Shown piece after piece: positions 1 to 52,149 of a stretch of 64,000 nt of DNA. Both the position numbers and the translations under genes were made by a program. The DNA comes from Haliotis rufescens (lineage: Eukaryota). The stretch lies in NCBI RefSeq assembly GCF_023055435.1, contig NW_025964001.1:4092001-4156000 (forward strand). The letters are read 5' to 3'. Every line of letters starts with the position of its first letter. Position 1 is the first letter of the stretch. The notes below the pieces were generated by a model. It ran no database searches and was not told where the DNA came from. It saw nothing but the letters and a program-made list of their open reading frames with translations.

Positions 1-216
1 CACACGCAACCTCATTGCGAACCATGTATACGTTCACTGCGTGTCGTGTGTGTCTCATAAATGTTTCAGTGACTAATGAAACAAGTACTGACAAGACATT
101 TCTGACAAATGAGATCGGATACACAAACAAACAATCAAAAAGCACTACCATTGTCAGCTGTGGATTCAGATCTGGCGAGCCAAGGCAGAGTCGGCACATC
201 GTTGTTCTGGAGTTGG

Positions 217-1080: not shown

Positions 1081-1336
1081 ATCATTGCGTCTCTGAAATC
1101 CTCCTTTGTGCCATGTTCACAGGGAAGGAATAGACGTTACAAGTCGGCGGATTTAAATACCCAAATTTGAATTCAGTATCTCATGGGGTCCTCTTTTCAT
1201 GTGTCTTAGCATTTCCCCTGACAAAAGCATGCTTTTGTTAAACGTCACATAGTGTATGCAGTCAATCGATTTTGTAGAACTATGTAATATTTACACAGTA
1301 AAAGCATGTTTGTTCCTCCAACCAAGATTGTTTATC
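825..1336. repeat. 256-bp direct tandem duplication
   Basis: 825-1080 is repeated at 1081-1336 with one visible substitution (ttggc versus ttagc). Confidence 0.9.
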
Positions 1337-1440
1337 TGACTGTAGCATGAATAATGTTAGAAACACACAGTTAGTTATGTTTAATCTGTACATGGTAACG
1401 TTGATTACTATGATGTTAACACACAAAATGCTGGCCTTAC

Positions 1441-4400: not shown

Positions 4401-7097
4401 GGCCACACTGAGGACCCATTCTGACACCACGTCATCGCCGGGACCGTCTTCAGTGGGCAACACAGCACCAGCATTGGCGCCACCAGCAGTTGAGAAGAGT
4501 CCTCTTCTCAGGCGAGAGCCGTTACTGTGTCTCAACAGCAGATGGGAGAGAGAGAGTCTGTCGACGCCGTGGGGAACGTTATTCAGATGATTGTGTTGAT
4601 GAGAGAGACTCGTGGGGTGGTCCGAGCATCATGGTGTGAGGTGGAATTGGTCTTGCACAGAGGGTCGGCCCTCTGGTCTTCCAGAACATCGGTCCAGGGA
4701 GAGGCAATGGTGTCACAGCAGCTCGGTACATTGATCAAGTCTTGAGACCACACGCTATACCTAATTTGGCACGTCGCCGCAACCACGAATTTCAGCATGA
4801 TAAAGCCCGTGCCCACACTGCGAGAGCAACAAGAGACTTCCTACAGCAGAACGGCATCAAAACCATGCAGTGACCTGCCCTCAGTCCCGATTTAAATCCC
4901 ATTGCACCTGTAGGACGAGATTCAAAGACGGCTGAATGACGTCCGACCAAGGCCGACAACTGCAGCTGAACTGCATCAGGCGTTCCTCAGAGTGTGGCCT
5001 CCTGTGCCTATGGCCTTCATTAACCGCTTCATCCATTCCATGTATCGACGTTGAACGGCAGTCATCAATGCACATGGCGGACACACGAGATACTGACTTG
5101 TGATGCCATTTTCTCAGAGACTAATGTTGTGTTTCACTTTAAGAATATTTGACACTTTAATTTCAACCTTGATGATCAGTTTTGCCAAGTTTCATCTTTT
5201 TAATATGTCTCAAAGTATGTTTACAGTGTTTGGACAAATAAGGTTTCTCATATATCTATCCATGGTGACGTTTCTTTTGCGGTTCAGTATATTTCGTCCA
5301 AATGCAATTGTGTTTAATTCGAGGTCTACAAGTACAGAAATGTAACAGATACCTCGACTGTATTGATATTTTCCGTGTCACAGACTATTATTTATGTAAT
5401 GATAACAATTATCCTTGTAATTTGTCCAGGTACCCGACCATTAGTTCTGAATCGATCGCCGATTGACAAGGGTGATTCCATATTTGTTTGTTAACACTGA
5501 AAGTAGTACCCGCCTGACATCTCACATTTGCATCTTTATCCGAAAATGACCCTTTATCCGACTTTAGCCTACCGAGAAACCTACCCATTATATGATATAT
5601 GCAAGATATGATAGTTTATCCTCCTACTAACATACTTGGGTCTGGGCAGAGATGACTTGGTCCAGACTGTTGTCAGCCCCCTGTAGGCCGTTCAGTGTAA
5701 ACACAGCATAGAGCGCCATCCTCTGGATTTCTGGATCGGTGACATTGGCGGGGGTTGGAGCACCAACAAGCACGGCCCGCTTGCTGCTTGCAGTACATGC
5801 ATGCGTGGTTAATCGCTTGCCGTGTAGAATTGAATCAGAATAAAGGGTGACATCGCAGATCTGGGTCTGAAACACATCACTGCAATCATGTTATAAATGA
5901 GTTGAAATATGAATATCAAAAGGCTATTCTCAGGATATGGTGTGTAATTTCAAGCACACTTGTTATCCTGCTCCTTTTGATATCCACCTTATTACCACAC
6001 TGCAGTTTCATGTCCATTCTTGATTTGATGAGCTGCCATGAGCAAAGTCCTGTAACATGTCACGGGAGAGGTTGGGTAGAGAAGAGGTTAAAGCGTTCTC
6101 TCATTACTCGAAAGACCCTGGCTCGAACCCACACATGGTTACAATGTGTTAAAAGCGAGCATGACGCTCAGTCACTCATCAAATACTGCTGCCCCCAAAC
6201 GCCCGTCGAGACCAACAAGGACAGAAACAACATCTGCAGTGATGTTGTCGCCAGATGTTGACGGACTGGGTCAACGTGTCCTGCGCATCCGACAGCAGAC
6301 GCAGTGAGTGAGAGTGATAGAGGCACATTAGCATGTTAGCAGCTATATATATGTCAAGGAATGGCTCGTACGCAATGTTACACAGGTGTATACCGTATAT
6401 CTGATAGCCTGTGACATATGGCCTGAATATTTCAGTGAAGGTGTAAAACTCTGAAGAGAACTCACCGTCTGTCCGTTCTGCACCTTGAGGGACAGAAAGT
6501 AGTTGAAGCCAGCAATGCCGAAGGCACCGGCGCCAGGGACAACCTGTGAGGGAGGACAGTAATTGAGTCCAAATGATCAACTTTGGAAATAAATGGTATG
6601 AATCACATGCATTATCGATAGCAAATGATAAATTGCAAGTGTTGTTTAACGCAGCTGTATATCCAGGAATATGCGAGTTGTTGTAAGTACTTAAATTCTG
6701 GACCAGACAAACCAGTGTTACCATGACAACGACCCAGGCAACCTTGACAACTGATCCACTTAATTTGGCTTTGCGCCAATCTTAAGATACTAGGGACATA
6801 CTTGTCCCCGGAATCTTTGTTTACAATCTGTTTTGAAACATACCCAAATATACACGTTTTGGCGGACCAGGTGAGGTACACTCACTATTTACTGCGGAAG
6901 TAGGGACAGGCATATAGACAGACACCTACTTGAGTTTTAGCATTCAGAACAGACACGAGGCTTGCGTTCAGCTGGGTAACGGCGAAGCTTGACATCTGCT
7001 GAATGTCCCCTCTGGTCACGTCAGCATCCTTGGGGCTGCTTAAGAGTTGAGACGTGGCTAGTGGTAACACCACCAGGACCAGAGCTAGTATGTTCAT
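1441..7097 (-). CDS. Multicystatin paralogue (copy A), first five exons; continues beyond the left edge of the window
   Basis: Exons 6930-7097, 6466-6543, 5636-5866, 3026-3079, 1441-1674, all GT-AG, phase 0 and open. Same signal peptide as copy B. Linkers SSKR and AKRR. Domain 2 has QVVSG and QPW; domain 1 is divergent (QVVPGAGAFGIAG). Confidence 0.85.
1705..2845. repeat. 39-bp minisatellite in intron 4 of copy A
   Basis: Unit CATTACACGACCAAGATGTATTGGCTAGATACGGTGGTT, degenerate, just under 30 copies. Confidence 0.92.
3764..5289 (+). mobile_element. Tc1-family transposon with both TIRs and a disabled transposase, in intron 3 of copy A
   Basis: TIRs TACTGAACTGCAAAAGAAACGTCACC and GGTGACGTTTCTTTTGCGGTTCAGTA flanked by TA. 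Transposase remnants RVTTRRQDR, QHDKARAH and SPDLNPI with stops. Confidence 0.9.
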
Positions 7098-13575: not shown

Positions 13576-16500
13576 CTAGGCCAGTTGTCCACATGAGTCG
13601 GATACCAGCTGATATTTAGGATCATTCCACGCCTGGTACCACACCGACACCGTGCACGCCATACGCTGCAGCAAAGAAACAAAGACTCACCAACCTAAAT
13701 AACAAAGACTTAATAAAACAAAACAAGCCATAATGAGAAATCTTATTTTCCCCGACACCATGTTTCTGAAGAACATGGCCCTTATCTCTGTTTACCTGGG
13801 GCATGCTGTTGCTGGCGGGACAGTCGGTGATTCCTTTGCCGGTGCTGTCGTCGTTGTTCATGCAAGAGGATGTCACAAGGTGAAGGTCAAACGAGTACTT
13901 CATGCCAGCCACAACCTGTAGACAGTCAAATTGATCTTCAACAACAGAATAACACGACCTTACGTCACATACCACACCTAGAGGTTTCAATGGTGTAGGC
14001 TTCCAAAGGTTATATCTTTGGAGCAATCATTAGGCGTTCCTTGTATTCCAACATGAACACACACGAATAGCCCGGTTTCAAGTAAACGGCCTTAAAGAGT
14101 GATAATTTGATGTTAAGGCTTAAGGGGACAATCTATTTGCCTAATATTTCATATAATCAAGCTGAGGGGTAGATCATTTCATTTCACGGTTGGTGATATA
14201 AAAATGTTGGGAAAAGATAGATTTGTATGACCCACGTCGCACTTAAACTTTACCAGCCTCCATATAGCTGGAATATTGCTACGTACGGCGTTAGACAACA
14301 AACAAATACACTGTGCCACCACTCCCATCTGATGTCTTAATTACCAATAATGACGTCTGTGTTAACAAAACTAAAGAGAGTGTATAAATACGTTAATTGT
14401 TATGACTTCTTATATTGTGCTGCGTGTCCAGATGTGTGGATACCAACAGTGTACATTCATAACGGAAGACGACCTGTGAAGATCCAGGCTAGAATAGGTC
14501 TTCAACAACCCATGCTTGTCGTAAGAGGCGACTATGCTTGTAAGAGGCGACTAACTGGATCGCATGGTCAGGTTCCATCCATACCAATCAGAGACCACAC
14601 CACAATTTGAGAACAAGGTATTTCGCTGAATTGGTTGATGCATGTCATCATGTCCAAAATGCGTGAATTGATGCTCATGATATCATTCACTGGATTGTCT
14701 GTTCCAGACTCGATGATTTAGAGACCGCCGTCATATAGTTTGACTATTGCTGAGTATGGTGTTTAACAAAACATAATGGACGACACAGCTTCGGTAGTAA
14801 TAATAGGGTGTCAAACGTTGCATCATTGGTTTATCCTTAGGGATTCCTTGTATTCCTTTTGATGAAAGAACTGACTGACGATGATCTCGTTCAGTGTTAT
14901 GGGGTATACCTGTTGTGTGACGTGGTCCACTTTCTCAGTCACCATCCGGAACATGTTGTTCATCTTTCCATTCAAAGCGTCTTCTACAAACGACACAGCT
15001 TGCTGCACTGGAGCCGTGAGATTGGCGGGCTCCACACCTCCCACAAAAAGACCTCTCTTGCTGACAGCGGAGCATTTGTGCTCTGTCACCTTCTTTGTGT
15101 TGGTCCAGGATTGGTACCATATCCTCACTTCACACATCTGGGTCTGGGGGTATACAGCACAACCATTAACAGAGTGAGTGAGTGTGCTTTACTGACAGTT
15201 TAAAAATACCACAGCTTTAGTTTGAAAGAGATCTTAAGAGCAAAAACAAAATATATAGAAATGTATAAAGCGGTGTTCTTCTTATGAAAAATGGCATACT
15301 CATTTTACATCTTCAATCTCATAGTGCCCAACTAGTTACAACTACTGAAAACAAATCTTAGCTCACCTTATCTCCATTCTGAAGACTCAGGGTAAGGATG
15401 TAGTTAATACCGGAGACGATCTGAAAGAAAGACATTTTTGAGATGTCGTGCGTCTGAATCCATTTCTTTGACACATACATGAATGGGTATAATGTGATGA
15501 TTGTAGGTCTACACGCAGAAGAAACGTTCCCAAGAACGTATTTAAACAATGTATTTCTATTAACTGTTCTTCAACACTATCCTATGCATTATTGAACAAT
15601 AATACACATTAACAGAAACATCCGTACTTGTTTTCTGGCGTTAACGACTTTGACTAGAGAGTTCTGTTCTCCTTGAAGTCCGTTGATCTCCGTGACAGCG
15701 AAGTTGGCCACTTCCTTAATCTCTGCACTGTTGACGTCCACAGCAGTGACGCCCCCGAGAAGACCCAGTGCACGCTTTGTCACCTGGGTACAGCTGTGCT
15801 GTGTCATCTCCAATTTGTTGAGCCAGGGCTGAGACCAGACCTTCACGTTACAGATCTGGGTCTGAGGGCAGACAGGAGACATAATGATCAGGTAACAGGT
15901 GTAGAATAGAGGCATAGTTGAACAGGTGTAGCGTTACAGGTGTACCGCTGAGAATGTTTCTAACTACTGTCCAGATCTTCACACTAGATCTAGATCTGCG
16001 GACAGACAGGGGGCTTATTAGTCAGGTAACAGTTATAGAACAACATAAAGTACATCATCCTCAAAACATTTAGTTTTAGAATGTATCTGACATCTATCAA
16101 AACAAATAATATAACAGGACTCACCTTGTCCCCTTCCTTAATACGTATGGCCAGGACGTAGTTCACTCCAGCAACAACCTGAAACGTTTGAAGAAACGTT
16201 TGAAGAAGTATAAAGGACATGCATTGTGCACTGTGTGTACTACCTGTATAATTATGTACTGCTTAAGAAATATCTTAGGTAAAGCTCAGGCAACCTCTCA
16301 CAATATTTGTCACAGAAATATCATTATTGCATGCTGCTTCTGGTATAGGCCTGATACAATACCATTTTCCTTGACACAAGTAAGCTTTGGTTATGGGACA
16401 TGTATACAGCCAAACGATCTTGTAGAATTATGAGTAATATGTACATGTGTAAAGTCAATGCTGGCCTTACTTGAGTTTTGGCTGAGATAATTTGCTCCAT

Positions 16501-19500
16501 GCTGTTCTGGGCACCCTGCAGTCCGTTGATCTTGCCGAGGGCAAAGTTGGATATGTTCAGTACTTCAAGGCTGTTGACGTCCACGTTGGTCAGACCCCCG
16601 GGCATCCCGTTCCGCTTGGTGGCGGTGGTGCAGCTATGGTGGGTCAGCTTGGTCATGTGGGTCCAGGGCTGGTCCCAGATGGTCAAGTCACAGATCTGGG
16701 TCTGTAGCAAAGTCATCGATTACATGACCGGGACGAGTGGTCACATGTATTGACTGGACACAGTGATCCATTACACGACCAGGGCGAGTGGTTAGATGTA
16801 TTGACTGGACACAGTGATCCATTACACGACCAGGGCGAGTGGTTAGATGTATGGACTGGACACAGTGATCCATTACACGACCAGGACGAGTGGTTAGATG
16901 TATTGACTGGACACAGTGATTCATTACACGACCAGGGCGAGTGGTTAGATGTATTGACTGGACACAGTGATCCATTACATGACCAGGACGAGTGGTTAGA
17001 TGTATTGACTGGACACAGTGATCCATTACATGACCAGGACGAGTGGTTAGATGTATTGACTGGACACAGTGATCCATTACACGACCAGGACGAGAGTATG
17101 TAAGATGTATTGACTGGACACAGTGATCCATTACATGACCAGGACGAGTGGTTAGATGTATTGACTGGACACAGTGATCCATTACATGACCGGGACGAGT
17201 GGTCACATGTATTGACTGGACACAGTGATCCATTACATGACCAGGACGAGTGGTTAGATGTATTGACTGGACACAGTGATCCATTACACGACCAGGACGA
17301 GTGGATGGATGTATTGACTGGACACAGTGATCCATTACATGACCAGGACGAGTGGTTAGATGTATTGACTGGACACAGTGATCCATTACATGACCAGGAC
17401 GAGTGGTTAGATGTATTGACTGGACACAGTGATCCATTACACGACCAGGACGAGAGTATGTAAGATGTATTGACTGGACACAGTGATCCATTACATGACC
17501 GGGACGAGTGGTCACATGTATTGACTGGACACAGTGATCCATTACACGACCAGGACGAGTGGTTAGATGTATTGACTGGACACAGTGATTCATTACACGA
17601 CCAGGACGAGTGGTTAGATGTATTGACTGGACACAGTGATCCATTACACGACCAGCGCGAGTGGTAAGATGTATTGACTGGACACAGTGATCCATTACAC
17701 GACCAGGACGAGTGGATGGATGTATTGACTGGACACAGTGATCCATTACACGACCAGGGCGAGTGGTTAGATGTATTGACTGGACACAGTGATCCATTAC
17801 ACGACCAGGACGAGTGGTTAGATGTATTGACTGGACACAGTGATCCATTACACGACCAGGACGAGTGGATGGATGTATTGACTGGACACAGTGATTCATT
17901 ACATGACCGGGACGAGTGGTTAGATGTATTGACTGGACACAGTGATCCATTACACGACCAGGACGAGTGGTTAGATGTATTGACTGGACACAGTGATCCA
18001 TTACACGACCAGGACGAGTGGTTAGATGTATTGACTGGACACAGTGATCCATTACACGACCAGGACGAGTGGATGGATGTATTGACTGGACACAGTGATC
18101 CATTACACGACCAGGGCGAGTGGTTAGATGTATTGACTGGACACAGTGATCCATTACACGACCAGGGCGAGTGGTTAGATGTATGGACTGGACACAGTGA
18201 TCCATTACACGACCAGGACGAGTGGTTAGATGTATTGACTGGACACAGTGATCCATTACATGACCGGGACGAGTGGTAAGATGTATTGACTGGACACAGT
18301 GATCCATTACACGACCAGGACGAGTGGATGGATGTATTGACTGGACACAGTGATCCATTACACGACCAGGACGAGTGGTTAGATGTATGGACTGGACACA
18401 GTGATCCATTACACGACCAGGACGAGTGGTTAGATGTATTGACTGGACACAGTGATCCATTACACGACCAGGACGAGTGGTTAGATGTATTGACTGGACA
18501 CAGTGATCCATTACACGACCAGGGCGAGTGGTTAGATGTATTGACTGGACACAGTGATTCATTACACGACCAGGGCGAGTGGTTAGATGTATTGACTGGA
18601 CACAGTGATCCATTACACGACCAGGACGAGTGGATGGATGTATTGACTGGACACAGTGATCCATTACACGACCATGACGAGTGGTTAGATGTATTGACTG
18701 GACACAGTGATCCATTACACGACCAGGGCGAGTGGTAAGATGTATTGACTGGACACAGTGATCCATTACATGACCAGGACGAGAGTATGTAAGATGTATT
18801 GACTGGACACAGTGATCCATTACACGACCAGGACGAGAGTATGTAAGATGTATTGACTGGACACAGTGATCCATTACACGACCATGACGAGTGGTTAGAT
18901 GTATTGACTGGACACAGTGATCCATTACACGACCAGGACGAGAGTATGTAAGATGTATTGACTGGACACAGTGATCCATTACATGACCAGGACGAGTGGT
19001 TAGATGTATTGACTGGACACAGTGATCCATTACACGACCAGGACGAGTGGTTAGATGTATTGACTGGACACAGTGATCCATTACACGACCAGGACGAGAG
19101 TATGTAAGATGTATTGACTGGACACAGTGATCCATTACATGACCAGGACGAGAGTATGTAAGATGTATTGACTGGACACAGTGATCCATTACACGACCAG
19201 GACGAGAGTATGTAAGATGTATTGACTGGACACAGTGATCCATTACACGACCAGGACGAGAGTATGTAAGATGTATTGACTGGACACAGTGATCCATTAC
19301 ATGACCAGGACGAGTGGTTAGATGTATGGACTGGACACAGTGATCCATTACACGACCAGGACGAGTGGTTAGATGTATTGACTGGACACAGTGATCCATT
19401 ACACGACCAGGACGAGAGTATGTAAGATGGATTGGTTGGAATTAGCTCAGCTTCTGTTTTCGCTATCCATGGCACATTGCCGAGTAAACTCCAAATATAT

Positions 19501-22500
19501 TAGTCCTCGACAAACACGGTTGAGCTGGAGTAGTTTGACGGGTTTATTAAACCCTCTCCATTGTCTAATAAATACTCATAAGACTATTCGTCACAAGAAA
19601 TCTCTGCTAAAAACACATTATTTTATACAAGACATACCTGGGTTCCATCAATCAGGCGGATCTTCAGAATGTAGTTGGTGCCAGCAACCACCTGAAATAA
19701 GATAAGATTGTTGTGTTGACGCCAGAGAAACAACTCAGATCTTCTCTTAATAATGAAATATAAACAATATCTGAAACAGTGAAATCAATAAACGAAAACA
19801 AACATCAAAATTTGAAAAGATGTTAAAATCGATACTGCAGTCGGAAACACATATTTATAAATTATGTCATAGCACACTATTTACTTTATAAACGGTGACT
19901 TAGCCTAGACCTATACCAGGAGACACCAATATTAGGTGAGTTATCGAAGAAGAATTTGTCACATGACAAATTATATCCGCCTTCTAAGATACCTGGGTCT
20001 TGGCAGAGATGACTTGATCCAGACTGTTTTGGGCCCCCTGTAGGCCGTTCAGTGTAGTCACAGCAAAGGTCGCCATCCTCTGGATATCTGTACGGTTGAC
20101 ATCGACGGAGGTTGGAGCACCAACAAGCACGGCCCGCTTGCTGCGTGTAGTACATGCATGATGGGTAACACGCTTGTCGTTCAGCCATGCACGTGACCAG
20201 ATGGTAACAGTGCAGATCTGGGTCTAGAACACATCACCGCAATTGTGTCATAAGGATTTGAAAAAAAGAAAATCAAACACAATCGTGGTGATTCAAGTAC
20301 AGAATCCGTCCCCATTACATGTGAACAGCCTTAACCATGGCAACACCATCTGAAATGGAGTCTCTGGTTCGAATCCACACATGGTAACATTGTGTTAAGT
20401 GCATTCTGGTTGCCCCGCCATATGGATGGGATAGTGTTAAAAGCGGCGTCATCAACATTTGACCCTACTCGTCTGCAACACTTCGCGGGACTCTAAAACA
20501 CCCCTATCTGCGTCCCATGGAATCGTCTGGACCAACAAGGACAGAAGCAACAACAGTTGGGATGATGTCTCCAGATGTTGATGGGGAGCAGACGTAGTGA
20601 ATGAGAATGAGAGAGCAATAATAACTATTAACTATTCATGTACATCGACGAATGCTTGTTTTTTACCAGTGGGATGGCCACAGGGAGAGAGAGAGACAGA
20701 CAGACAGACAAAAGACAGACAGACAGAGAGAGAGAGAGAGAGAGGGGGAGGGGGTATGCACAATTCTTCAGAGGCCGGGATCTTAAGGGCTGAGTCACCC
20801 AATAATGAGGACATGTAAGCTTAGTGAGTGCTGGCATATCAGTGTGTAAAAATCTGAAGAGAACTCACCTGCTGTCCGTTCTGTATCTCGATGGTCAGTA
20901 AGTAGTTGACGCCAGAGACAACCTGTGAAGAAGAAGAAGTAAAAGCTCAGCATCTGAAACACAACTCCGGTGTTCCGAACTCGGATATAGCGAAGTATAG
21001 GCCATCATAATATTGAGTTCAAATAATCAACATTGGAAAACATAGTACAGAACTATAAATCACACGCATTATAGTAAGCTGTGCAATTCCCTCCTGGTGT
21101 CGTTGATAAACAGTGAATGTTGTTTAACGTTGCAATTTGCAATTTCCCAGCAATATTATGACGATGGTAAGTAATCGTGTTTGAACCAGGCAAACCAGTA
21201 AGCGATAGCATGAGCAACGATCCGCTATCGGGGCCTGATGGCACGTTGTCAGAGCTTGACCAACCCCTCCTGTTGGCTCTTAAACCAAGCTTGGGATGCA
21301 GGAGACCTAATCTCCCCCAGAGTCCTCACCAGGTTCCCAACTAATAAAAATAAGGCTGTAATAAGTATGACAATAATAAAAAGACCAACCCCTGGATTTA
21401 CATGAAATGCGTTAGTTCTCAGAATAGATTATGTTTAGTTGAGTCAAATATACAATTTAATTTATTTTTATATGATGACACCCTAATATATCTTTTTTTT
21501 ATTCACGGTGCCTAAATTCAATCCCCAAATAGTTTATTGTCCACTTTTTTATAAGCATAAAATCTATTTATTCCGCAAAAACAAATGCTGGACTACCTCT
21601 TTGATAACATCAATGTACACTTTGGAGGTAGAACATTTGAGCAACATTTGTGCTCCCCTACTTGCTAATCTGTTTCTCTATGCATATGAATCGGAGTTTC
21701 TCTTCGGATTGGTAAAAAGAAAAAAAAGGGTAATTTATCTGAGAGGTTTAACTTTAACTTCAGGTATATCGAGGATCTGATGTTGTTCAATAACAATCAA
21801 AGAGCCAGTTCCCTTCCACTGTTTTACCCACCTGAACTAGAAATAAAGGAGACCAGTGAGACCGCCACGTCCATTTCATATTTAGATCTATGCATAAAGA
21901 TTCAGAGTGACAAAACATTCTCCACAAGACTGTATGACAAGAGGGATGACTTCAACCTTCCAATAGTCAACTTTCCCTTCATGTCTAGCAATATTCCTGC
22001 AGCTCAAGCCCGTGGTGTCTACTTTCACAAGTTTTGAGGTTCAATCGAGAATGGTCTCAAAATTGCAAAGAGCGTCATGCAACTCTTGCTTGGAAGTGGT
22101 TTGATGAAGGTTGCAACATTCAGGGCCTCAGTTAAGCTTTCAAATATTTTATGGTAGACATGTGGATGACATTTCCAAATTTGCCGCATCAGTGACAAGA
22201 ATGATGTCTGATGCAATTCCCTATTTTTTTCCCGTTCCCGTGTTTTTTAAGGTGAACAATTAACTTGCCATTGCATGTGTTTGTGACGGTTGCCACCGGT
22301 AGGGCAGGGCACGCTCCCCTTTTCGCGAACACCTGGTATCATCACTATTTGATAGTGATTCATAAACGGATACTTATGAAAACAGTCGGAATCACACAAT
22401 TAACTCTGCTTTTTGGCAAGCATGTCTTATTAATATGGAAAATAGATTGTCGCTTATATCTACACAGCTCTTAGCAATATTCTAACAATATCACGGCGGA

Positions 22501-22802
22501 GGACACTAGAAATGAGCTTCCGACATTGTACCCATTTCAGGCCTTCGCGTTAACCACTAGGCTACCCCGCCGTCCCTATTTACTGCAGAGGTAAAAACAG
22601 ACATATAGATACCTACTTGAGTTTTAGCATCCACTACAGACACCAGAGTGTTCTGTGACCCGAGGAGCGTGTTCAGCTGGGTTAGGGCGAAGCTTGCCAT
22701 CTGCTGAATGTCGTCCCTGTTCACGTCGACAGCCACGGGGCCGCCTATGAGTTGAGACGTGGCTAGTGGTAACACCACAAGGACCAGAGCTAGTATGTTC
22801 AT
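13576..22802 (-). CDS. Secreted five-domain multicystatin precursor (copy B, complete, 513 aa)
   Basis: Exons, all GT-AG and phase 0: 22617-22802, 20869-20922, 19993-20223, 19638-19691, 16471-16701, 16125-16178, 15628-15861, 15367-15420, 14910-15143, 13796-13915, 13576-13665 (1542 nt including TAG). Signal peptide MNILALVLVVLPLATS. Five QxVxG motifs formed across junctions (QVVSG, QVVAG, QVVAG, QIVSG, QVVAG). N-terminal G/GG in each domain, PW-like second loops (RAW, QPW, QPW, QSW, QAW) and paired cysteines. Linkers RSKR, ATKR, VTKR, VSKR. Confidence 0.9.
14468..14770 (+). mobile_element. SINE-like dispersed repeat (third family) in intron 9 of copy B
   Basis: GACCTGTGAAGATCC...CAACCCATGCTTGTCGTAAGAGGCGAC...GGATTGTCTG recurs at about 24377-24565 and 30527-30860, and on the minus strand at 45040-45300 and 55545-55810. 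Confidence 0.7.
16720..19428. repeat. 51/54-bp minisatellite (about 50 copies) in intron 4 of copy B
   Basis: Unit TGACTGGACACAGTGATCCATTACACGACCAGGACGAGTGGTTAGATGTAT, with a 54-bp variant containing GAGAGTATGTAAG. Confidence 0.97.
21585..22410 (+). mobile_element. Penelope-like retroelement RT fragment in intron 1 of copy B
   Basis: CAPLLANLFLYAYE, YPPELEIKET, SYLDL and LYDKRDDFNLPIVNFPFMSSNIP. The paralogous copy is at about 39585-41240, interrupted by a minisatellite. Confidence 0.75.
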
Positions 22803-29637: not shown

Positions 29638-32584
29638 CTAGGCCAGTTGTCCTCATGAGTCGGATACCAGCTGATATTTAGGATCATTCCATGCCTGGTA
29701 CCACACCGACACCGTGCACGTCATACGCTGCAGCAAAGAAACAAAGACTCAACAACCTAAATAACAAAGACTTAATAAAATAAAACAAGCCATAATGAGA
29801 AATGTTATTTTCCCCGACACCTTGTTTCTGAAGAACATGGTCCTTATCTCTGTTTACCTGGGGCATGCTGTTGCTGGCGGGACAGTCGGTGATTCCTTTG
29901 CCGGTGCTGTCGCCGTTGTTCATGCAAATGGATGTCACAAGGTGAAGGTCAAATGAGTACTTGATGCCAGCCACAACCTGTAGACAGGCAAATTGATCTT
30001 CAACAACAGAATAACACGACCTTACGTCAAATACCACACCTAGAGGCTTCAATAGTGTAGGCTTCCAAAGGTTATATCTTTGGAGCAATCATTAGGCGTT
30101 CCTTGTATTCCAACATGAACACACACGAATAGCCCGGTTTCAAGTAAACGGCCTTAAAGAGAGATAATTTGATGTTAAGGCTCAAGGGGACAATCTATTT
30201 GCCTAATATTTCATATAATCAAGCTGAGAGGTAGATCATTTCATTTCACGGTTGGTGATATAAAAATGTTGGGAAAAGATAGATTTGTATGACCCACGTC
30301 GCACTTAAACTTTACCAGCCACCATATAGCTGGAATATTGCTACGTACGGCGTTAGCCAGCAAACAAATAAGCTTTGCGACCACTCCCATCTGAGGGAAC
30401 GATGTCTTAATTATCAATAATGACTTCTATGTTAACAACACTTGCTACGTTAATTGTTATGACTTCTTATATTGTACTGCGTATCCTGATGTGCGGATAC
30501 CAACAGTGTATATTCCTAATGGAAGACGACCTGTGAAGATCCAGGTTAGAATAGGTCTTCAACAACCCATGCGTGTCGTAAGAGGCGACTATGCTTGTCC
30601 TAAGAGGCGACTATGCTTGTCGTAAGAGGCGACTAACTGATCGCATGGTCAGGTTCAATCCATACCAATCAGAGATCACACCATAATTTGAGGATAAGTT
30701 ATTTCGCTGAATTGGTTGATGCATGTCATCATGTCCCAAATGCGTGAATTGATGCTCATGCTATCAATCACTGGATTGTTTGTTCCAGACTCGATGATTT
30801 AGAGACCGCCGTCATTAAGTTTCACTATTGCTGAGTATGGTGTTTAACAACAAACAAACAAACGTTGCATCATTGGTTCAATCTTTAGGGATTCCTTTTG
30901 ATGAAAGAACTGTATGGCGATGATCTCGTTCAGTGTTATGGGGTATACCTGTCGTGTGACGTGGTCCACTTTCTCAGTCACCATCCGGAACATGTTGTTC
31001 ACCTTTCCAGTCAAAGAGTCTTCTGCAAACGACACGGCTTGTTGCACTGGAGCCGTGAGATGGGCGGGCTCCACACCTCCCAGAAAAAGACCTCTCTTGC
31101 TGACAGCGGAGCATTTGTGCTCTGTCACCTTCTTTGTGTTAGTCCAGGATTGGTACCATATCCTCTCTTCACACATCTGGGTCTGGGGGTATACAGTACA
31201 ACCATTAACAGAGTGAGTGAGTGTGCTTTACTGACAGTTTACAAATATCACAGCTTTAGTTTGAGAGAGAACTTAAGAGCAATAACAAAACCCGTGTATA
31301 AAGCGATGTTCTTCTTATGAAAATGGCAACCCATTTTACACCTTCAAACTCATAGTGCCCAACTAGTTACAACTCCTGAAAACAAATCTTAGCTCACCTT
31401 ATCTCCATTCTGAAGACTCAGGGTAAGGATGTAGTTAATACCAGAGACGATCTGAAAGAAAGACATTTTTAGAAACTTAAATACGTCGTGCGTCTGAATC
31501 CATTTCTTTGACACATACATGAATGGGTATAATGTGATGATTGTAGATCTACACTCAGAAAAATGTTCCAAAGAACGTATTTGAACAATGTATTTCCATT
31601 AACTGTTCTTCAACACTATCCTATGCATTATTGAACAATGACACACATCAACAGAAACGTCCGTACTTTTTTGACTAGAGAGTTCTGTTCTCCTTAAAGT
31701 CCGTTGATCTCCGTGACAGCGAAGTTGGCCACTTCCTTAATCTCTGCACTGTTGACGTCCACAGCAGTGACGCCCCCGAGAAGACCCCCGGCACGTTTTG
31801 TCACCTGGGTACAGCTGTGCTGTGTCATCTCCAATTTGTTGAGCCAGGGCTGAGACCAGATCTTCACGTTACAGATCTGGGTCTGAGGGCAGACAGGAGA
31901 CATAATGATCACGTATCAGGTGTAGAATAGAGGCATAGTTGAACAGGTGTAGCGTTACAGGTGTACCGCTGAGAATGTTTCTAACTACTGTCCAGATCTT
32001 CAAGCTACAGATCTAGATCTGCGGACAGACAGGTGGATTAATAGTCACGTAACGGTTGTAGAACAACATAAAGTATATCACCCTCAAAACACCCTCAAAA
32101 TGTATCTGATATCTTTCAGAAAATATAATAAAACAGGACTCACTTTGTCCCCTTCCTTAATACGTATGGCCAGGACGTAGTTCACAACAGCAACAACCTG
32201 AAACGTATGAAGAAGTATAGATGGACACACAAGGATCCCCCTTGTTCACTGTGTGTACTGAGTGTATACTAGTACTTATGTACTGCTTAAGAAATCACTT
32301 ATGTAAAAGGCAACCTCTCACAATATTTGTCACAGAAATATCATGATTGCATGCTGCTTCTGGTATAGGCCTGATACAATACCATTTTCCTTGACACAAG
32401 TAAGCTTTGGTTATGGGACATGTATACAGCCAAACGATCTTGTAGAATTATGAGTCATATCAACATGTGTCAAGTCAATACTGGCCTTACTTCAGTTTTG
32501 GCTGAGATAATTTGTTCCATGCTGTTCTGGGCACCTTGCGGTCCGTTGATCTCGCCCAAAGTTGGCCATGTTCAGTACTTCAAG
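29638..32584 (-). pseudogene. Multicystatin copy C, decayed 3' exons (domains 3-5)
   Basis: Exon remnants 32491-32584, 32144-32197, 31667-31882, 31398-31451, 30949-31182, 29858-29977, 29638-29727. Lesions relative to copy B: 5-nt deletion near 32555, QVVAG changed to EVVAV, CAA to TAA at 31694-31696, 18-nt deletion near 31668 removing the motif Gln, TGT to TGA at 29653-29655. Confidence 0.88.
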
Positions 32585-35500
32585 TGGTGAGGTCACCAAG
32601 ACCAATACGTACCTGTTTTCTTTTGGTATTCCGACTCTTCCACCTTCAATTCGAGCAGGATATTGTAGTATCAAGGTTGATATGTAAATACCAAATCCAC
32701 TTAATGCTACAAGTGTCAACATTATGGCCATGGTTCCAGAGCTTGGGACAAACAGGCTGCGTGTCATCGCTGTGGTGGCAATTGTGCAGACAGTTATGAG
32801 TGTGATCAAGATCCCTCATGTGTGAATTGTGGCGGTAACCCTGTTTCCTCGTCAAAAGAATGTCCAGTATGGAAACGCGAGTCAAAGGTTGTCAAAGTCA
32901 AACATGAGCGGAACATCTCTTTTCAGGATGCTAAGAATATTGTTTTAGATGAAGAACAGTAGGTTCGAAATTCTTACTCTGCCGTTGTTTCACGACCAAA
33001 TTGACGGCCTGTTCCCCAGCCTGTTTCACACACCACTGTCGGATGTCAGACAGATTACACATTGACCACAACGGAATCACCTGAAATTCTTTCACTTTCT
33101 TCTAATTCAGCAACTGTTTTAGAAACTGCCAGTTCTCATACACCTACCCCAAAACCAGCTAGGAAATCAAATCCAAATGTTGACTACTCATTAACAAAAG
33201 GCAAATAAGGGTCTCCCTAAGGGTCATAGAGATCCTGTTACTATGTTTAATAGGTTTGGTGTGTTCGAGGACATGGATGTGTCTTCACAAAACACACGAT
33301 CCAGATGCCATTCCCCTAGGAAAAAAGGCTGTGAGCGGTCTCCTGTCATTGCACCATAATGCATAGTAACACAATTATACAATGGAACTGTCGATGGCTA
33401 AGGGCGAATTTTGATGAGGTTAAATTTCTATCTAAAGAACTTAATCCCGTGGCTTTTGTCTTCAAGAAACATATTTAAGAGAATGCGATAATCTTGACTA
33501 CCGTCAATATCATATGTTTCATTCATATGCGAAGGTTACCAATGGTAAAAGAACGGGTGGTGCCAGTGTACTCGTTCGCGTGGAACATTACACAGTGCTG
33601 TACCACTAAATACCAACCTACTGGCGGTTGCAGTACGAATAACTCTGCATATTGCTATAGCTTTATGTTCTCTGTATTTACCACCATCCACTGCACTTCA
33701 GATAAAAGATTTAGATACTCTTATCCTAATCCATTTTTGCTTATGGGCGATCTTAATGGTCACAACCCATTGTGGGGTTCGGGTGATCAAAATTATAAAG
33801 GAAAAATACTTGAAAAGTTGCTCCAGAAGCAGGGTCTCTTTCTATCTAATGATGGTAGCAACACGTATTTACATCCAGCGACTGGTACTTACTCAGCTCT
33901 TGATTTAGCCTTTGCTGATCCGTCTCTTTTGGATGAGTTCTCATAGTCAGTACATGATGACCTGTGTGGGAGTGATCATTTCCCAACCATACTCAAAACC
34001 TTTGAACATTTTATTGATGATCCTGATCAGATCAGATCATTTTCGGATAAATTAATAAACATTGCCACAGAAACCATGCCCAAGACCTCGACAAAAATCC
34101 ACATGTAAAAACACCATGGTGATGATTGTAGAAAAGCTAGGAAACATAGGAAAAAGTCTGAAAGAGTGTTTAATAAACAGCCCACGGCCAATAATTTAAA
34201 CTGCTTACGAATGTCAAAAGCAAAGGTTCGTAGAACAATTAAACAAAATGAACGTACAAGCTGGAAATAGTTTGTTTCGAAAATACATTCTCGTACCCCC
34301 CTTAATAAAGTATGGAATATGATAAGAAAGATAAAAGGAAAGGGGTCTCAGCGCAATATTCAGCATCTACAATCATGATGTATTGACATCAAAACAGGAT
34401 ATTGCTAATAAGTTGGCAGAAACGTTCAGCCAAAATTCCTCATCTGCCAACTATGACCCAAAATTTCTAAAATTTCTAAATCAGCAGGAAAGGAAAATTC
34501 TGAATTTTCGGTCTGATGGTTCAGAGGATTACAACGAATCCTTTTCCTTGACTGAGTTACAAGAGGCTTTGAAGAAGGCTCATGATACAGCCTCTGGGCC
34601 AGATGACGTACATTATCAATTTTTGAAACATCTTCCTGACCCTTCTCTGTTAACCCTTTTATCCATATTTAATAGTATATGGGAAAATGGTAACTTCCCT
34701 CCTTCCTGGCATGAGGCTACTATAATACCTGTGCCTAAACCAGGTAAGGATCACACATTCTTCAAATTACAGACCTATTGCTCTGACAAGTTGTCTCTGT
34801 AAAACCATGGAACAGATGATCAACTGGCGTCTCGTTTGGTTTCTTGAATCAAATAATCTGATCACAGACATTCAGTGTGGTTTTAGACACCAGAGGAGCA
34901 CCATCGATCATCTTGTCCGATTGGAATCATTTGTACGGAATGGCTTTGTAAACAAGCAGAATGTTGTGTCGATCTGTTTTTATCTTGAGAAGGCTTACGA
35001 TACCACATGGAAGTATGGTATATTAAAAGATCTCCACGACATGGGTTTACATCACTCGCTTTTTAGAAGATAGAAAATTTAAAGTTAGAGTAGGCTCCAC
35101 ATTGTCCGAAATATATGATCAGGAAATGGGGGTCCCTCAGGGCAGTATTTTATCAGTGACACTTTTTAGCACACAAATCAACATTCTTGCTAAGGTTTTA
35201 AATGAAAATATTGATGGTTCGTTGTTTGTTGACGATTTTAATGTTTCATGCCGTGGTGCAAATATGAATACCATTGAGAGACAATTACAACTTTGTCTCT
35301 ATAAAATACAAAAATGGGCCTTTAGAAAATGGTTTTAAATTTTCCAAAACTAAAACCTGCTGTGTTCATTTTTGCAACAAACGGAAACTGCATAAAGATC
35401 CAGAATTGACTTTAAATAATATTCCAATAAAAGTGGTCAAAGAAACCAAGTTTTTTTGGTATTACCTTTGATAAAAGTTATCATTTAAACCTCACATTAA

Positions 35501-37085
35501 AAATCTTAAAGCTAGATGTTTGAAAGCGCTTGACATTTTAAGGTAGTGTCAAATGATAGGTGGGTTGGTGATAGAGAAACACTATTACATCTCTATAGAA
35601 CTTTGATAAGGTCTAAACTTGATTACGGCTGCTTCATTTATGGTTCAGCTCGTAAATCATACATTCGAGTACTATTCACCATCAGGGACTTCGGTTGTGT
35701 CTTGGAGCATTTAGGACATCGCCAATTGACAGTCTATATGTGGAAGCCATTGAACCCAGTCTTAGCCTAAGACGAATAAAACTGGCATTACAATATATCA
35801 CTAAACTCCGCTCCAATCCTTCTAATCCAGCATTTAACAATATCTCCCGTGCTCCATATCAGCATTTATATATCAGAAATCCAAACACAATCCCACCACT
35901 TAGCATTCGCTTGCAATCCCATATCAAGGATGCCCATTTAAATCTCTCTGCCATTGCCGAATACAAAATGTCAGAAATGCCTCCTTGGCAATCGATACAA
36001 CCTGATGTTAATTTAGAATTAGCGAACCTGAAGAAGTCTGACACTAATCAATTATTTTATCAACAAGAATTTCATGAACTGAAGAACCGATACTCCTCTA
36101 ATACCAGTATTTACACTGATGGTTCAAAAGATGGCGAAAAGGTGTCTGCTGCAGCTGTTGCTAACAATCATACAGTGTCTATACGTATAACTGACGGAAG
36201 TTCGATATTTACGGCAGAAGCTCAGGCTATATTATTAGCTTTGCAATATATTGAACAGTCTTCTAAACGCAGTTTTCTCATATTATCTTATAGTTTGTCC
36301 TGTTTACAGGCAATCAAAAATCGAAAAGTGGATCATCCATTTTTAGCTGAAATTTTAAGGTGTCATCTCAATTAAGCCGTAGCTGGAAAAGATGTAATGT
36401 TTTGTTGGCTGCCAAGTCATGTTGGCATTAGGGCAACTGTAAAGCAGATTCTTCGGCAAAAGCCACTCTTAATAAACCAACTTCAAACACAAACTTCCCA
36501 TATTCTGATCTAAATCCTTCCATCAGACAATATGTGAATGATCATTGGCAAACAAGCTGGAATACCAAGACTATGAACAAACTTCATGCTATCAAACCAC
36601 TGATTGGAGGTAATGCACGTTCTGGTTTATATCGTCATGATGAAGTTGTTTTACAGCGGTGCCGCAATGGCCACAGTTATTATACACATTCATTTTTATT
36701 GAAGGGTGAAGATCCACCTTTTTGTATACCTTGCCATAGCCCTCTTACTATAAAGCACATTCTGCTGGAATGTGTTGATTTTGCACTTGTCAGACAACGT
36801 TTTTATGATAATGTTCATACCTTATCTGAACTTTTTACCACAGTTTCTAATCACTTGATATTAGCGTATTTAAAGGAAATCAAATTCTCATTGATAAAAT
36901 ATAGATTTATACCTGAACAGTCAGTCTTTCACCTATGAATGTAATACATGACTGAGATTTTAGTGATTTTCAACATCACTTTTATTATATTCGTTGATAT
37001 ATGTTTACACAAAGGGCATTTCTCGCCGCGAAAAGCTGCAAAAGTGCTGATTCGGCGTAAAGAAATATTCACTCACTCACTCACT
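32585..37085 (+). mobile_element. Non-LTR retrotransposon (I group, Nimb/I-like), 5'-truncated and degenerate, inserted in exon 5 of copy C
   Basis: ORF1 remnant with zinc knuckles (CYKCQHYGH, CVNCGG). ORF2 from about 33359 carries APE motifs (IIQWNC, MGDLNGHNPLWGS, GSDHFP), RT (GPDDVHY, GVPQGSILS, FVDD), RNase H (IYTDGSK, FTAEAQAI, WLPSHVG) and a C-terminal CxxC..H...C. (ACTC)n tail at 37071-37085. Many stops and frameshifts. Confidence 0.93.
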
Positions 37086-40000
37086 CCCGTTCCGCTGGTG
37101 CAGCTATGGCGGGTCAACTCGGTCATCTGGGTCCAGAGCTGGTCCCAGATGGTCACGTCACAGATCTGGGTCTGAAACACAGTCATCGATTACATGACCG
37201 GGACGAGTGATTAGATGTATGGACTGGACACAGTGATCCATTACACGACCAGGGCGAGTGGTTAGATGTATTGACTGGACACAGTGATCCATTACACGAC
37301 CAGGACGAGTGGTTAGATGTATTGACTGGACACAGTGATCCATTACACGACCAGGGCGAGTGGTTAGATGTATTGACTGGACACAGTGATCCATTACACG
37401 ACCAGGGCGAGTGGTTAGATGTATTGACTGGACACAGTGATCCATTACACGACCAGGGCGAGTGGTTAGATGTATTGACTGGACACAGTGATCCATTACA
37501 CGACCAGGACGAGTGGTTAGATGTATTGACTGGACACAGTGATCCATTACACGACCAGGACGAGTGGTTAGATGTATTGACTGGACACAGTGATCCATTA
37601 CATGACCAAACACGATTGAGCTGGAGTAGTTTGACGGGTTTATTAAACCCTCTCCTTTATCTAATAAATACTCATAAGACTATTAGTCATAAGAAATCTC
37701 TGCTAAGAACACATTATTTTATACGAGACATACCTGGGTTCCATCAATCAGGCGGATCTTCAGAATGTAGTTGGTTCCAGCAACCACCTGAAATAAGATA
37801 AGATTGTTGTGTTGACGCCAGAGAAAACTCAGATCTTCTCTTAATAATGAAATATAAACAATATCTGAAACAGTGAAATCAATAAACGAAAACAAACATC
37901 AAATTTGAAAAGATGTTATGATCGATACTGCAGTCGGAAAACACATATTTATAAATTATGTTATACCACACTATTTACTTTATAAACGGTGACTTAGCCT
38001 AGACCTATACCAGGAGACACCAATATTAGTTATATATCGAAGAAGAATTTGTCACATGACAAATTATATCCGCCTTCTAAGATACCTGGGTCTTGGCAGA
38101 GATGACTTGATCAAGACTGTTTTGGGCCCCCTGTAGGCCGTTCAGTGCAGTCACAGCAAAGGTCGCCATCCTCTGGATATCTGTACGGTTGACATCGACG
38201 GAGGTTGGAGCACCAACAAGCACGGCCCGCTTGCTGCGTGTAGTACATGCATGATGGGTAACACGCTTGTCGTTCAGCCATGCACGTGACCAGATGGTAA
38301 CAGTGCAGATCTGGGTCTAGAACACATCACCGCAATTGTGTCATAAGGATTTGAAAAAAGAAAATTAAATCAAACACAATCGTATTCTGGGTGCACGGCC
38401 ATATGGATGGGATAGTGTTAAAAGCGGCGTCATCAACATTTGACCCTTCTCGTCTGCAACACTTCGCGGGACTCTAAAACACCCCTATCTGCGTCCCATG
38501 GAACCGTCTGGACCAACAAGGACAGAAGCAACAACAGTTGGGATGATGTCTCCAGATGTTGATGGGCAGCAGATGTAGTGAATGAGAATGAGAGAGCAAT
38601 AATAACTATCAACTATATATGTACATTGACGAATGCTTGTTTTTTACCAGTGGGATGTCCACAGCGAGAGAGAGAGGGGGGGGGGGGGGGGGTGAGCGGG
38701 ATGTGCACAATTCACAGGTCTTCAGATGCCGGAATCTTAAGAGCTGAGTCACCTAATAATGAGGACATGTAAGCTTAGTGAGTGCTGGCATATCAATGTG
38801 TAAAAATCTGAAGAGAACTCACCTGCTGTCCGTTCTGTATCTCGAGGGTCAGTAAGTAGTTGACGCCAGAGACAACCTGTGAAGAAGAAGAAGAAAAACC
38901 TCAGCATCTGAAACACAACTCCGGTGATCCGAACTCGGATATGGCGAAGTATAGGCCATCATAATATTGAGTTCAAATAATCAACATTGGAAAACATAGT
39001 ACAGAACTATAAATCACACGCATTATAGTAAGCTGTGCAATACCCCCAGCCCCCTCTAACCACCCACCCCACCCCACCCCCAACCCCATCCCCCACCCCC
39101 CTGGTGTCGTTATAAACAGTTAATGTTGTATAACGTCGCAATTAGCAATTTCCCAGCAATGTTATGACGATTGTAAGTAATCGTGTTTGAACAAGGCAAA
39201 CCAGTAAGCGATAGCATGAGCAACGATCCGCTATCGGGGCCTGATAGCACGCGGTCAGAGCTTGACCAAACCCTCCTGTTGGCTCTTAAGCCAAGCTTGA
39301 GATACTGGAGACCTAATCTCCCCCAGCGTCCTCACCAGGCTCCCAACTAATAAAAATAAGGCTGTAATAAGTATGACAATAATAAAAAGACCAACCCCTG
39401 GATTTACATGAAATGCGTTAAATCTCAGAATAGATTATGTTTAGATGAGTCAAATATACAATTTAATATATTTATATATGATGACACCCTAATGTATCTT
39501 TTTTATTCACGTTACCTAAATCCAATCCCAAAATAGTTTATTGACCATTTTGTATAAGCATAAAATCTTTTTTTTTTCGCAAAAACAAATGCTGAACTAC
39601 CTCCTTGATAACATCAATGTACACTTTGGAAGTAGAATATTTGAGCACCATTTCTGCTCCCCTACTTGCTGATCTGGTTCTGTATGCTTATGAATCGGAG
39701 TTTCTTTTCGGATTGGTAAAGTAAAAAAAAAGGTAATTTATCCAAGAGGTTTAACTTTAGCTTCAGGTATATCGATGATCTGATGTTGTTCAATAACAAT
39801 CAAATAGCAGACTCGGTGACCAGTAGGTCATCGTACCATACTTTCAACCACAGGACTGTCTGGCCAAGACTCGGTGACCTGTAGGTCATCGAACCATACT
39901 ATCAACCACAGGACTGTCTGGCCTAGACTCAGTGACTTGTAGGTCATCGTACCATACTATCCACCAACAGGACTGTCTGGCCTAGACTCAGTGACTTGTA

Positions 40001-41643
40001 GGTCATCGTACCATACTATCAACCACAGGACTGTCTGGCCAAGACTCGGTGACCTGTAGGTCATCGTACCGTACTATCAACAACAGGACTGTCTGGCCAA
40101 GACTCGGTGACCTGTAGGTCATCGTACCATACTATCAACCACAGGATTGTCTGGCCAAGACTCAGTGACCTGTAGGTGATCGTACCATACTATCAACCAC
40201 AGGACTGTCTGGCCAAGACTCGGTGACTTGTAGGTCATCGTACCATACTATCAACCACAGGACTGTCTGGCCAAGACTCGGTGACCTGTAGGTCATCGTA
40301 CCGTACTATCAACCACAGGACTGTCTGGCCTAGACTCAGTGACTTGTAGGTCATCGTACCATACTATCAACCACAGGACTGTCTGGCCAAGACTCAGTGA
40401 CCTGTAGGTCATCGTACCATGCTATCAACCACAGGACTGTCTGGCCAAGACTCGGTGACCTGTAGGTCAACGTACCGTACTATCAACCACAGGACTGTCT
40501 GGCCTAGACTCAGTGACTTGTAGGTCATCGTACCATACTGTCAACCACAGGACTGTCTGGCCAAGACTCAGTGACCTGTAGGTCATCGTACCGTACTATC
40601 ACCCACAGGACTGTCTGGCCAAGACTCGGTGACCTGTAGGTCATCGTACCGTACTATCAACCACAGGACTGTCTGGCCAAGACTCGGTGACCTGTAGGTC
40701 ATCGTACCGTACTATCAACCACAGGACTGTCTGGCCAAGACTCGGTGACCTGTAGGTCATCGTACCGTACTATCAACAACAGGACTGTCTGGCCAAGACT
40801 CGGTGACCTGTAGGTCATCGTACCGTACTATCAACCACAGGACTGTCTGGCCAAGACTCGGTGACCTGTAGGTCATCGTACCATACTATCAACCACAGGA
40901 CTGTCGCACCATACTATAGAAGCTGTTTGATTCAGGTTGCAACATTCAGGGCCTCAGTAAAGCTTTAAAAATATTTTATAGTAGACATGTGGAGGACATT
41001 TCCAAATTTGACGCATCAGTGACAAGAATGATGTCTGACGCAATTCCCTATGTTGACTTGTCCCGTGTTTTTTTTAAGGTGAACAATTTACTTGCCTGTG
41101 CATGTGTTTGTGACGGGTGCCACCGGTGGGGCATGTCACGCTCCCCTTTTCGCGAACACCTGGTATCATCACTATTTGATAGTGATTCATAAATAGATAC
41201 TTATGATACAGTCGGAATCACACAATCAACTCTGCTTTTTGGCAAGCATGTCTTATTAATATGGAAAATAGATTGTCGCTTATATCTACACAGCTCTTAG
41301 CAATATTCTAACAATATCACGGCGGAGGACACTAGAAATGAGTTTCCGACATTGTACCCATTTCAGGACTCGAACCCGAGCCTTCACTTTAACCACTAGG
41401 CTACCCCGCCGTCCCTTTTTACTGCAGAGGTTAAAAAAAAGGCAGTTTGACACCTACTTGAGTTTTAGCATCCACGACAGACACCAGAGTGTTCTGTGAC
41501 CCGAGGAGCGTGTTCAGCTGGGTAAGGGCGAAGCTTGCCATCTGCTGAATGTCGTCCCTGTTCACGTCGACAGCCATGGGTCCCCCCATGAGTTGAGACG
41601 TGGCTAGTGGTAACACCACAAGGACCAGAGCTAGTATGTTCAT
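37073..41643 (-). CDS. Multicystatin copy C, 5' part: potentially intact two-domain cystatin (207 aa) truncated by a LINE
   Basis: Exons 41458-41643, 38823-38876, 38086-38316, 37734-37787 and 37073-37171 read without interruption. The frame ends ...HSCTSGTGVSE-TGA inside the antisense LINE tail. Whether it is expressed is inference. Confidence 0.65.
37190..37608. repeat. 51-bp minisatellite (about 8 copies) in intron 4 of copy C
   Basis: Same unit and same intronic position as 16720-19428. Confidence 0.95.
39810..40905. repeat. 58-bp minisatellite (about 19 copies) in intron 1 of copy C
   Basis: Unit GACTCGGTGACCTGTAGGTCATCGTACCATACTATCAACCACAGGACTGTCTGGCCAA. Confidence 0.95.
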
Positions 41644-42061
41644 TCTTTGTGTAAGTAAAGTGGAACTATAAGCCCTACGGATACGGCCTCCTATATATAT
41701 GTGAAAAAACCGTCCCACGTTCAGCTATTGTGTCCCAAGGTTGGTTGTGTGTGCGTGCGTGGTGATTGTCGTCTACTGTGTCACGTGACTCACGGCCACC
41801 GAGGTCAGTGACTACGTTTCCTGTTGCTTAATATGTATATAATACTTTCTACATGCCTGATGAAATGTCAACACAGCACATATCTTAATAACACCACGTA
41901 TAATTGATCATTGCGAGAATTTCATTACACCATTAAACATTTATATTTGGTGACAAAAACCAGTAAAACATTTGATAGCTTCATTGTTCATTTAAATGTC
42001 ATTTTTATCTTATTATAATCAAGTCTTCTTTTCGAATGCCTTTGAATTAAATCAGGATAAA

Positions 42062-47250: not shown

Positions 47251-47340
47251 TTTTCTTGGCGCTGACCAGAGAGGTCTGTGCCTCTTGAAGTCCGTTTGCC
47301 TCCGTGAGAGCGCAGTTGGCCACTTCCTGAATCTCCACTA
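47251..47340 (-). pseudogene. Isolated relic of a multicystatin long exon
   Basis: Translates as VEIQEVANCALTEANGLQEAQTSLVSAKK, alignable to copy B exon 7 AEIKEVANFAVTEINGLQGEQNSLVKVVNARK. Confidence 0.7.
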
Positions 47341-51988: not shown

Positions 51989-52149
51989 GAGTGAGTATGC
52001 TTTTACGCCGCCTTTAGCAATCTTCCAGCAATAACACGGCGGGGGACACCAGAAATGGGCTTCACACATTGTACCCATGTCGGGAATCGATCCCTGGTCT
52101 TCGGCGTGACAAACGAACGCTTTCACCACTAGGCTACCCGACCGCCCCC
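51989..52149 (-). mobile_element. tRNA-derived SINE, same family as 12524-12690
   Basis: Reverse-complement match over the full length, including the A and B boxes and the tail. Confidence 0.88.

Follow-up and report, generated by a model that had tools for sequence, protein, structure and literature searches.

A two-domain cystatin gene ended by a LINE in an abalone multicystatin cluster: transcription in the genus and probable retention by selection

A cystatin cluster with one interrupted copy

The window (the whole 64-kb stretch of Haliotis rufescens DNA analyzed here) contains three tandem minus-strand genes made up of cystatin domains, copies A, B, and C (Table 1), with KR pairs separating the domains. 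The copy B product is identical to the NCBI “multicystatin-like isoform X1, Haliotis rufescens” (P0004). Copy C has the exon layout of copy B, with introns diverged from it by about 6%. Elsewhere in the cluster domain number varies by exon duplication; at copy C it varies by LINE truncation.

Table 1. Features of the cystatin cluster, in positions of the window.
Feature	Position	Strand	Remarks
Copy A, 5′ part	1..7097	-	gene extends past the left edge of the window; product of 610 aa (P0006); outgroup
Copy B	13576..22802	-	intact, 11 coding exons, 513 aa, five domains; parent-type paralog
Copy C, stranded 3′ half (rest of exon 5, exons 6-11)	29638..32584	-	frameshift, two stops, 18-nt deletion
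Degraded 5′-truncated LINE in copy C exon 5	32585..37085	+	antisense to gene; (CACT)n tail
Poly(A) addition site, after CA	36964	-	X7 record 25: 20 T before 36964
AATAAA, antisense strand of LINE 3′ end	36981..36986	-	family-wide
TGA used in H. rufescens frame	37073..37075	-	inside (GAGT)n tail
TGA used by frame without the 10-nt deletion	37079-37077	-	
Copy C exon 5, host part; domain 2 end	37085..37171	-	carries P187L and 10-nt deletion in H. rufescens
Copy C exon 4; VVAG of domain 2 QxVxG motif	37734..37787	-	
Copy C exon 3; domain 1 end, KR linker (109-110), domain 2 start	38086..38316	-	local B/C conversion tract
Copy C exon 2	38823..38876	-	
Copy C exon 1, coding part; hydrophobic signal-like N-terminus, domain 1 start	41458..41643	-	copy C starts at 41643
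TATA-like box of copy C	41688..41700	-	present in copy B too
Minisatellites, in order: intron 4 of B, of C, and of A; copy C intron 1	16711-19416, 37177-37608, 1773-2845, 39809-40905		

Exon 5 of copy C is interrupted by a LINE of about 4.5 kb, inserted 5-7 nt past the KR codons that end domain 2, that is, just past the domain 2/3 linker, where an earlier note on this DNA had placed it. Remnants of an ORF1 zinc knuckle, an endonuclease, a reverse transcriptase, and an RNase H-like region are present. The endonuclease (PF14529, 43.4 bits, cut-off 27.4) and reverse transcriptase (PF00078, 45.6 bits, cut-off 29.6) are recognizable in broken frames; the RNase H match is weak (19.2 bits, below the 25.8 cut-off). 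It may belong to the I-group clades, which bear RNase H. It has many relatives, at 91-94% identity, and all 29 of those fetched (from 40 scored matches, of 260 candidates) carry the (CACT)n tail. Its 5′ truncation is about 1.1 kb: four of five relatives share that much sequence beyond its 5′ end, and the fifth shares 0.5 kb. No target-site duplication, which LINEs usually but not always produce, was found flanking the insertion, which instead replaced 35 nt of exon 5. Several tRNA-type SINEs in the window (12523-12690, 51989-52148, and others) have a (CACT)n tail and a 3′ end similar to that of the LINE, suggesting that it may be their partner; for gastropod MetaSINEs such as HalSINE1 no partner LINE was known, according to the available part of the source (PMC4824008).

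On the gene strand the exon 5 frame reads ...RHSCTSGTGVSE-stop. The stop and the poly(A) signal that had been proposed for it, a TGA within the antisense (GAGT)n run and the AATAAA that follows, are both present, and a second AATAAA is found at 36700. The (GAGT)n run yields a TGA in all three frames within 12 nt, and the antisense AATAAA is present in 26 of the 29 other copies examined. Both features therefore come automatically with this LINE family: their presence says nothing of selection, only their use matters, and the idea that a stop plus an AATAAA is too unlikely to have arisen by chance can be dismissed. The 3′ UTR to 36964, about 110 nt, is antisense LINE. This LINE-derived stretch (36964-37069) has 11 private letters in 106 nt, while the adjacent LINE body has 12 over 360 nt (p = 0.008); eight of the 11 are also found in run X7 (see below), so these arose early. 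They may reflect either remodeling after capture or an unsampled subfamily.

The two halves of copy C differ in condition. As reported in the earlier note, exons 1-4 are free of lesions. Their frame is open and they have GT-AG ends; exon 1 has six differences from copy B, two of them nonsynonymous, and exon 3 has 2 in 231 bases. What remains of exon 5 does carry lesions: over 75 nt it differs from copy B at seven positions, one of the changes being P187L in the PW motif, and the 10-nt deletion reported to have removed the KR linker is confirmed in the H. rufescens sequence, at about 37093-37096, where it takes out the KR codons. Past the LINE there are a 5-nt frameshift at about 32556, Q-to-E and G-to-V changes in the domain 3 QVVAG motif, an 18-nt deletion at the end of exon 7, and two premature stops (TAA at 31696-31694 and TGA at 29655-29653). 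The lesions described earlier for this half thus stand, with one correction: two of the eight amino-acid differences from copy B in exon 9 are changes on the B branch, with copy A as outgroup. At 27118-27615 copy C also retains a counterpart, 93% identical, of the untranslated last exon of B, complete with the AATAAA.

Transcripts ending in the LINE, and the age of the insertion

A search listed 24 runs, none recorded as RNA; five were examined, all from organisms other than H. rufescens (X1 and X5 are from organism A, X7 from organism B, and X11 from organism C). That H. rufescens is missing from this set is no evidence of silence there. Over the stretch 36500-37176, contigs in four of four runs pass directly from the start of exon 5 to exon 4 sequence and are therefore spliced. 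In three of the four (X1, X5, and X11) a single contig joins exon 4, exon 5, and the LINE tail, reaching to 36818, to 36969, and past 36500, respectively. The X1 contig, of 534 nt, runs from exon 3 through exons 4 and 5 into the LINE with introns 3 and 4 removed, and intron 3 is skipped in X11 as well; the exon 2-3 joint is present as loose contig ends in all three RNA-type runs. Contig depth at exon 5, which is not a ranking of expression, is higher for C-type than for B-type contigs in X11, while X1 and X5 have no B-type contig there.

A 141-nt contig from X7 runs from 37084 to 36964 and then into a 20-letter poly(A), 17 nt after the AATAAA; the genome has CA at this point and no long A run. 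This contig stops short of exon 5, and is assigned to the copy C locus because it has three differences from this copy, compared to nine from the nearest of the 29 family copies; its best other genomic match is 92%. Polyadenylation close to 36960, which the earlier note had looked to transcripts to confirm, is thus found, in an organism other than H. rufescens. The poly(A) was seen in one of the four runs, and longer 3′ ends occur besides it. Together with the chimeric contigs and a gene model from a second species, it upholds the central proposal, that the LINE donates a stop codon and poly(A) signal and that a two-domain transcript is made.

The contigs differ from the H. rufescens sequence by a few percent and are therefore from other species. 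Two automated NCBI gene models also cover the locus: a 207-aa model (P0007) identical to the copy C frame, and a 209-aa model from H. cracherodii (P0009) ending ...SATKWNGSE, the sequence that the LINE tail gives when the 10 nt are not deleted. This counterpart, together with the junction contigs, places the insertion before the split of these species. Among the matches listed, X1, X5, and X11 likewise have the 10 letters, giving KR-NGSE-stop, and all four runs have proline at 187; the PW is also present in P0009. Among the species compared, the 10-nt deletion, P187L, and T137A were found in H. rufescens only and are late changes of its lineage. Since the 10 letters are present in P0009 and in these contigs, the original end was KR-NGSE-stop. 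The deletion is no part of the gene's origin, and the idea that it created the new end can be rejected. The second KR has been lost twice by different routes, by deletion in H. rufescens and by an R-to-W change in H. cracherodii, which may be read as relaxed constraint.

A near-length protein search with P0007 gave one hit among 364 candidates, an H. asinina model of unrelated architecture, and no further two-domain forms; an exact look-up of single-exon products gave no match, as expected for partial sequences.

The predicted two-domain protein

P0007 matches the cystatin family (PF00031) in two stretches, at 94 bits compared to a cut-off of 22.2. Its structure model (mean pLDDT 76.6, from an 11-sequence alignment) has two complete cystatin folds, each with a helix and four to five strands, matching solved cystatins. 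The last strand ends at residue 202, the LINE-derived residues are disordered, and the 10-nt deletion falls after the last predicted strand. Cystatins are marked by an N-terminal glycine and a QxVxG loop (PMC7913475), and both are intact in each domain (G20/G21 and Q62-G66; G115 and Q157-G161). Type 2 cystatins (I25B) have PW in the second hairpin loop; at this position domain 1 reads AW in copies B and C alike, and domain 2 of H. rufescens copy C reads LW. LW is also found at this position in two domains of an H. rubra paralog (P0002), so that P187L need not inactivate; the solved potato multicystatin has VW and EW. Residues 1-17 are hydrophobic by eye. With one cysteine pair per domain and two domains, the protein is not a strict type 2 cystatin (I25B: two disulfide bonds, single domain), and by sequence is best filed as multicystatin-type.

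Conservation, conversion, and comparable cases

As an alternative to selection, the earlier note had suggested recent gene conversion from copy B. Across the 5′ half as a whole this can be rejected: B and C introns differ at 148 of 2378 sites upstream of the LINE (6.2%) and at 124 of 2021 downstream (6.1%; p = 0.95), so there has been no wholesale conversion. It does hold locally. Intron 3 has just 7 differences in 297 nt (p = 0.001), while introns 1, 2, and 4 are as diverged as the downstream introns; in exon 3, H. rufescens B and C share letters at 38299 and 38184 that contigs from other species mostly or wholly lack. Exon 3 and intron 3 thus form a local B/C conversion tract, and part of the conservation here is borrowed from copy B. 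Three residues (K319, I374, and N498) common to H. rufescens B and the dead half of C, and absent from copy A (P0006) and from B of other species (P0008 and P0011), suggest that there may be conversion tracts downstream too. Exons 1 and 5 have not been reset in this way, since the C-specific residues M19, M23, V181, Q190, E193, and R196 are common to both named species.

The claim that selection continued on the 5′ half only has moderate support, from conservation across species; the dN/dS contrast between the halves is not significant (p from 0.06 to 0.54). Between B and C, exons 1-4 differ at 4 of 391 nonsynonymous and 6 of 134 synonymous sites (p = 0.02), or 9 of 452 and 7 of 148 with exon 5 included (p = 0.08); the downstream exons differ at 24 of 668 and 12 of 187 (p = 0.10), and dN/dS for the dead half is near 0.33-0.56. 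The ratio does not differ significantly between upstream and downstream exons (p = 0.16 for exons 1-4, 0.54 with exon 5), nor does the nonsynonymous rate on the C branch (p = 0.06 and 0.34). The C branch is longer than that of B even in introns (45 compared to 19 sites, with A as outgroup), making polarization with copy A unreliable.

Protein-level selection on copy C is nevertheless likely, on the grounds of its cross-species conservation. Between H. rufescens and H. cracherodii, 6 of 201 residues differ in C, 4 of 201 in B, and 17 of 203 in A. Under neutral simulation about 17 changes would be expected in C at 4% divergence (P(≤6) = 0.001) and nine at 2% (P = 0.25), and the frame would stay open with a chance of 0.05 or 0.23, respectively. 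These divergences are assumed, no neutral distance having been found for this species pair; non-coding distances for other North Pacific abalone pairs are 0.059-0.090, as given in the available part of PMC2704960. No exonic indels were seen in exons 3-4 in any of the four runs, among the matches listed. In the same exons X11 has five nonsynonymous and three synonymous differences from H. rufescens C, a ratio that would amount to weak constraint, although B- and C-type contigs are not fully separable there.

A LINE-terminated gene is thus real and transcribed in the genus, and protein-level selection, with local conversion, is likely. The explanation we favor, and think probably correct, is that copy C is a LINE-interrupted duplicate whose spliced mRNA ends in the LINE tail in related species, and which encodes a working, secreted two-domain cysteine-protease inhibitor under purifying selection. 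The antisense LINE interrupted the fifth exon of a duplicated multicystatin gene; the frame reads through into the LINE tail, where (GAGT)n stops any frame, and polyadenylation occurs, in one run, 17 nt after the built-in antisense AATAAA. With its stop in the new last exon, the mRNA would be expected to escape nonsense-mediated decay. The product would be secreted and a convertase would cut the KR sites, so that copy C would add to the supply of domains 1 and 2 but not of domains 3-5; in the original form, a cut at the second KR would strip off the LINE-derived residues. Short B/C conversion tracts would act on both halves. In the parts of the literature searched, no paper was found showing KR processing of a multicystatin.

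A transcribed pseudogene, with a surviving promoter, RNA terminated by the LINE, and a frame kept open by short conversion from B plus chance, would account for several of these observations: the stop and AATAAA are automatic in the LINE family, exon 3/intron 3 has undergone conversion and the dead half may have done so, and the dN/dS contrast is not significant. We consider this unlikely, since introns 1, 2, and 4 are as diverged as the downstream ones, the C-specific residues of exons 1 and 5 are common to both named species, the same conversion failed to save the 3′ half, and the frame is open in two annotated species, with the simulated chances given above. It is harder still to argue that copy C was alive in the ancestor and remains so in other abalones while decaying in H. 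rufescens. The open frame through both domains, the position of the deletion after the last predicted strand, the LW of P0002 and the VW/EW of potato multicystatin, the intact TATA box and splice sites, and the NCBI protein model all speak against it, even though, of the species compared, it alone has the frameshifting deletion, T137A, and the second-binding-loop change P187L, and the RNA contigs are all from other organisms. Near-identical tandem copies with minisatellites are hard to assemble, and an uncollapsed haplotype or mis-join might produce copy C or its LINE junction; this is refuted for practical purposes by the 6% difference between B and C introns and by the presence of the junction in contigs from other organisms and in the model from a second species.

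On the favored explanation, that of a selected two-domain gene, a broader role can be imagined, which we offer tentatively and with more doubt than belief. The LINE family might act as a portable antisense terminator, with a stop in every frame and an AATAAA within 110 nt, resizing modular genes. At copy C it would have landed behind a convertase site, the first product being a clean two-domain precursor from which the LINE-derived residues were cut off; the gene might then have been kept for millions of years by altering the proportions in which the cluster releases its inhibitor domains.

Copy C is a transposon-truncated gene of the Veneno/CHKov1 type, with an insertion in a coding exon and a spliced transcript ending in the element (in RNA from other organisms). 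In the Drosophila Veneno-Doc allele, a non-LTR retrotransposon in a coding exon likewise gives a shortened, polyadenylated chimeric transcript and an early end to translation; that case, in the available part of its description (PMC9304006), arose recently, is polymorphic, and has had its gain of function tested, whereas copy C is old, occurs in several species and at a domain boundary, is a duplicate with a surviving full-length paralog, and has a predicted function. The Drosophila CHKov1-Doc allele, as far as the accessible text goes (PMC3197678), shares the coding-sequence insertion, truncated mRNA, shorter protein, and a tandem duplication in the region, but there the duplication followed the insertion and the benefit is mapped, while in abalone one member of a duplicate pair took the insertion, and its benefit is inferred. 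In mammalian premature polyadenylation by L1 and SINEs (“gene-breaking”), antisense-strand LINE poly(A) signals similarly end host transcripts; those cases are mostly intronic or deleterious, in the portion of the source at hand (PMC6466679), while this one is an exonic, putatively RNase H-type LINE whose tail also gives the stop. Other multicystatins (potato, 4lzi; arthropod, in the available part of PMC3407033; abalone, P0001-P0006) have tandem cystatin domains with QxVxG motifs and the same fold; the abalone domains differ from the others in having one cysteine pair and KR linkers.

Documented cases of useful transposon-truncated proteins are few, and mostly recent fly polymorphisms. Copy C is old, present in several abalone species, and beside an intact paralog, with its dead 3′ half still attached as an internal neutral control; it offers a testable case of an exonic LINE changing domain number, and of distinguishing, within a tandem cluster, the effects of selection and of gene conversion. 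No description of the locus or its LINE origin was found in the portions of literature searched, though an NCBI gene model exists.

On the B branch, with A as outgroup, there are 15 nonsynonymous changes and one synonymous (p = 0.14), due either to positive selection or to A/B conversion distorting the polarity. Beyond copy A (L006, about G000:C223:4077944-4078208) lie an isolated fragment of exon 10 and a complete last exon; the NCBI isoform X2 of copy B (P0010) ends with the product of this last exon, about 27 kb from B's exon 10. The intron 4 minisatellite has 52.5 units in B and 8.5 in C, with a related 39-nt unit in A, and an array of 18.9 units of 58 nt in copy C intron 1 is missing from B. 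An exon-7-like relic (47263-47335, 85% identical to B) upstream of copy C, close to a single unit of this 58-nt minisatellite, appears to be the trace of a further lost copy.
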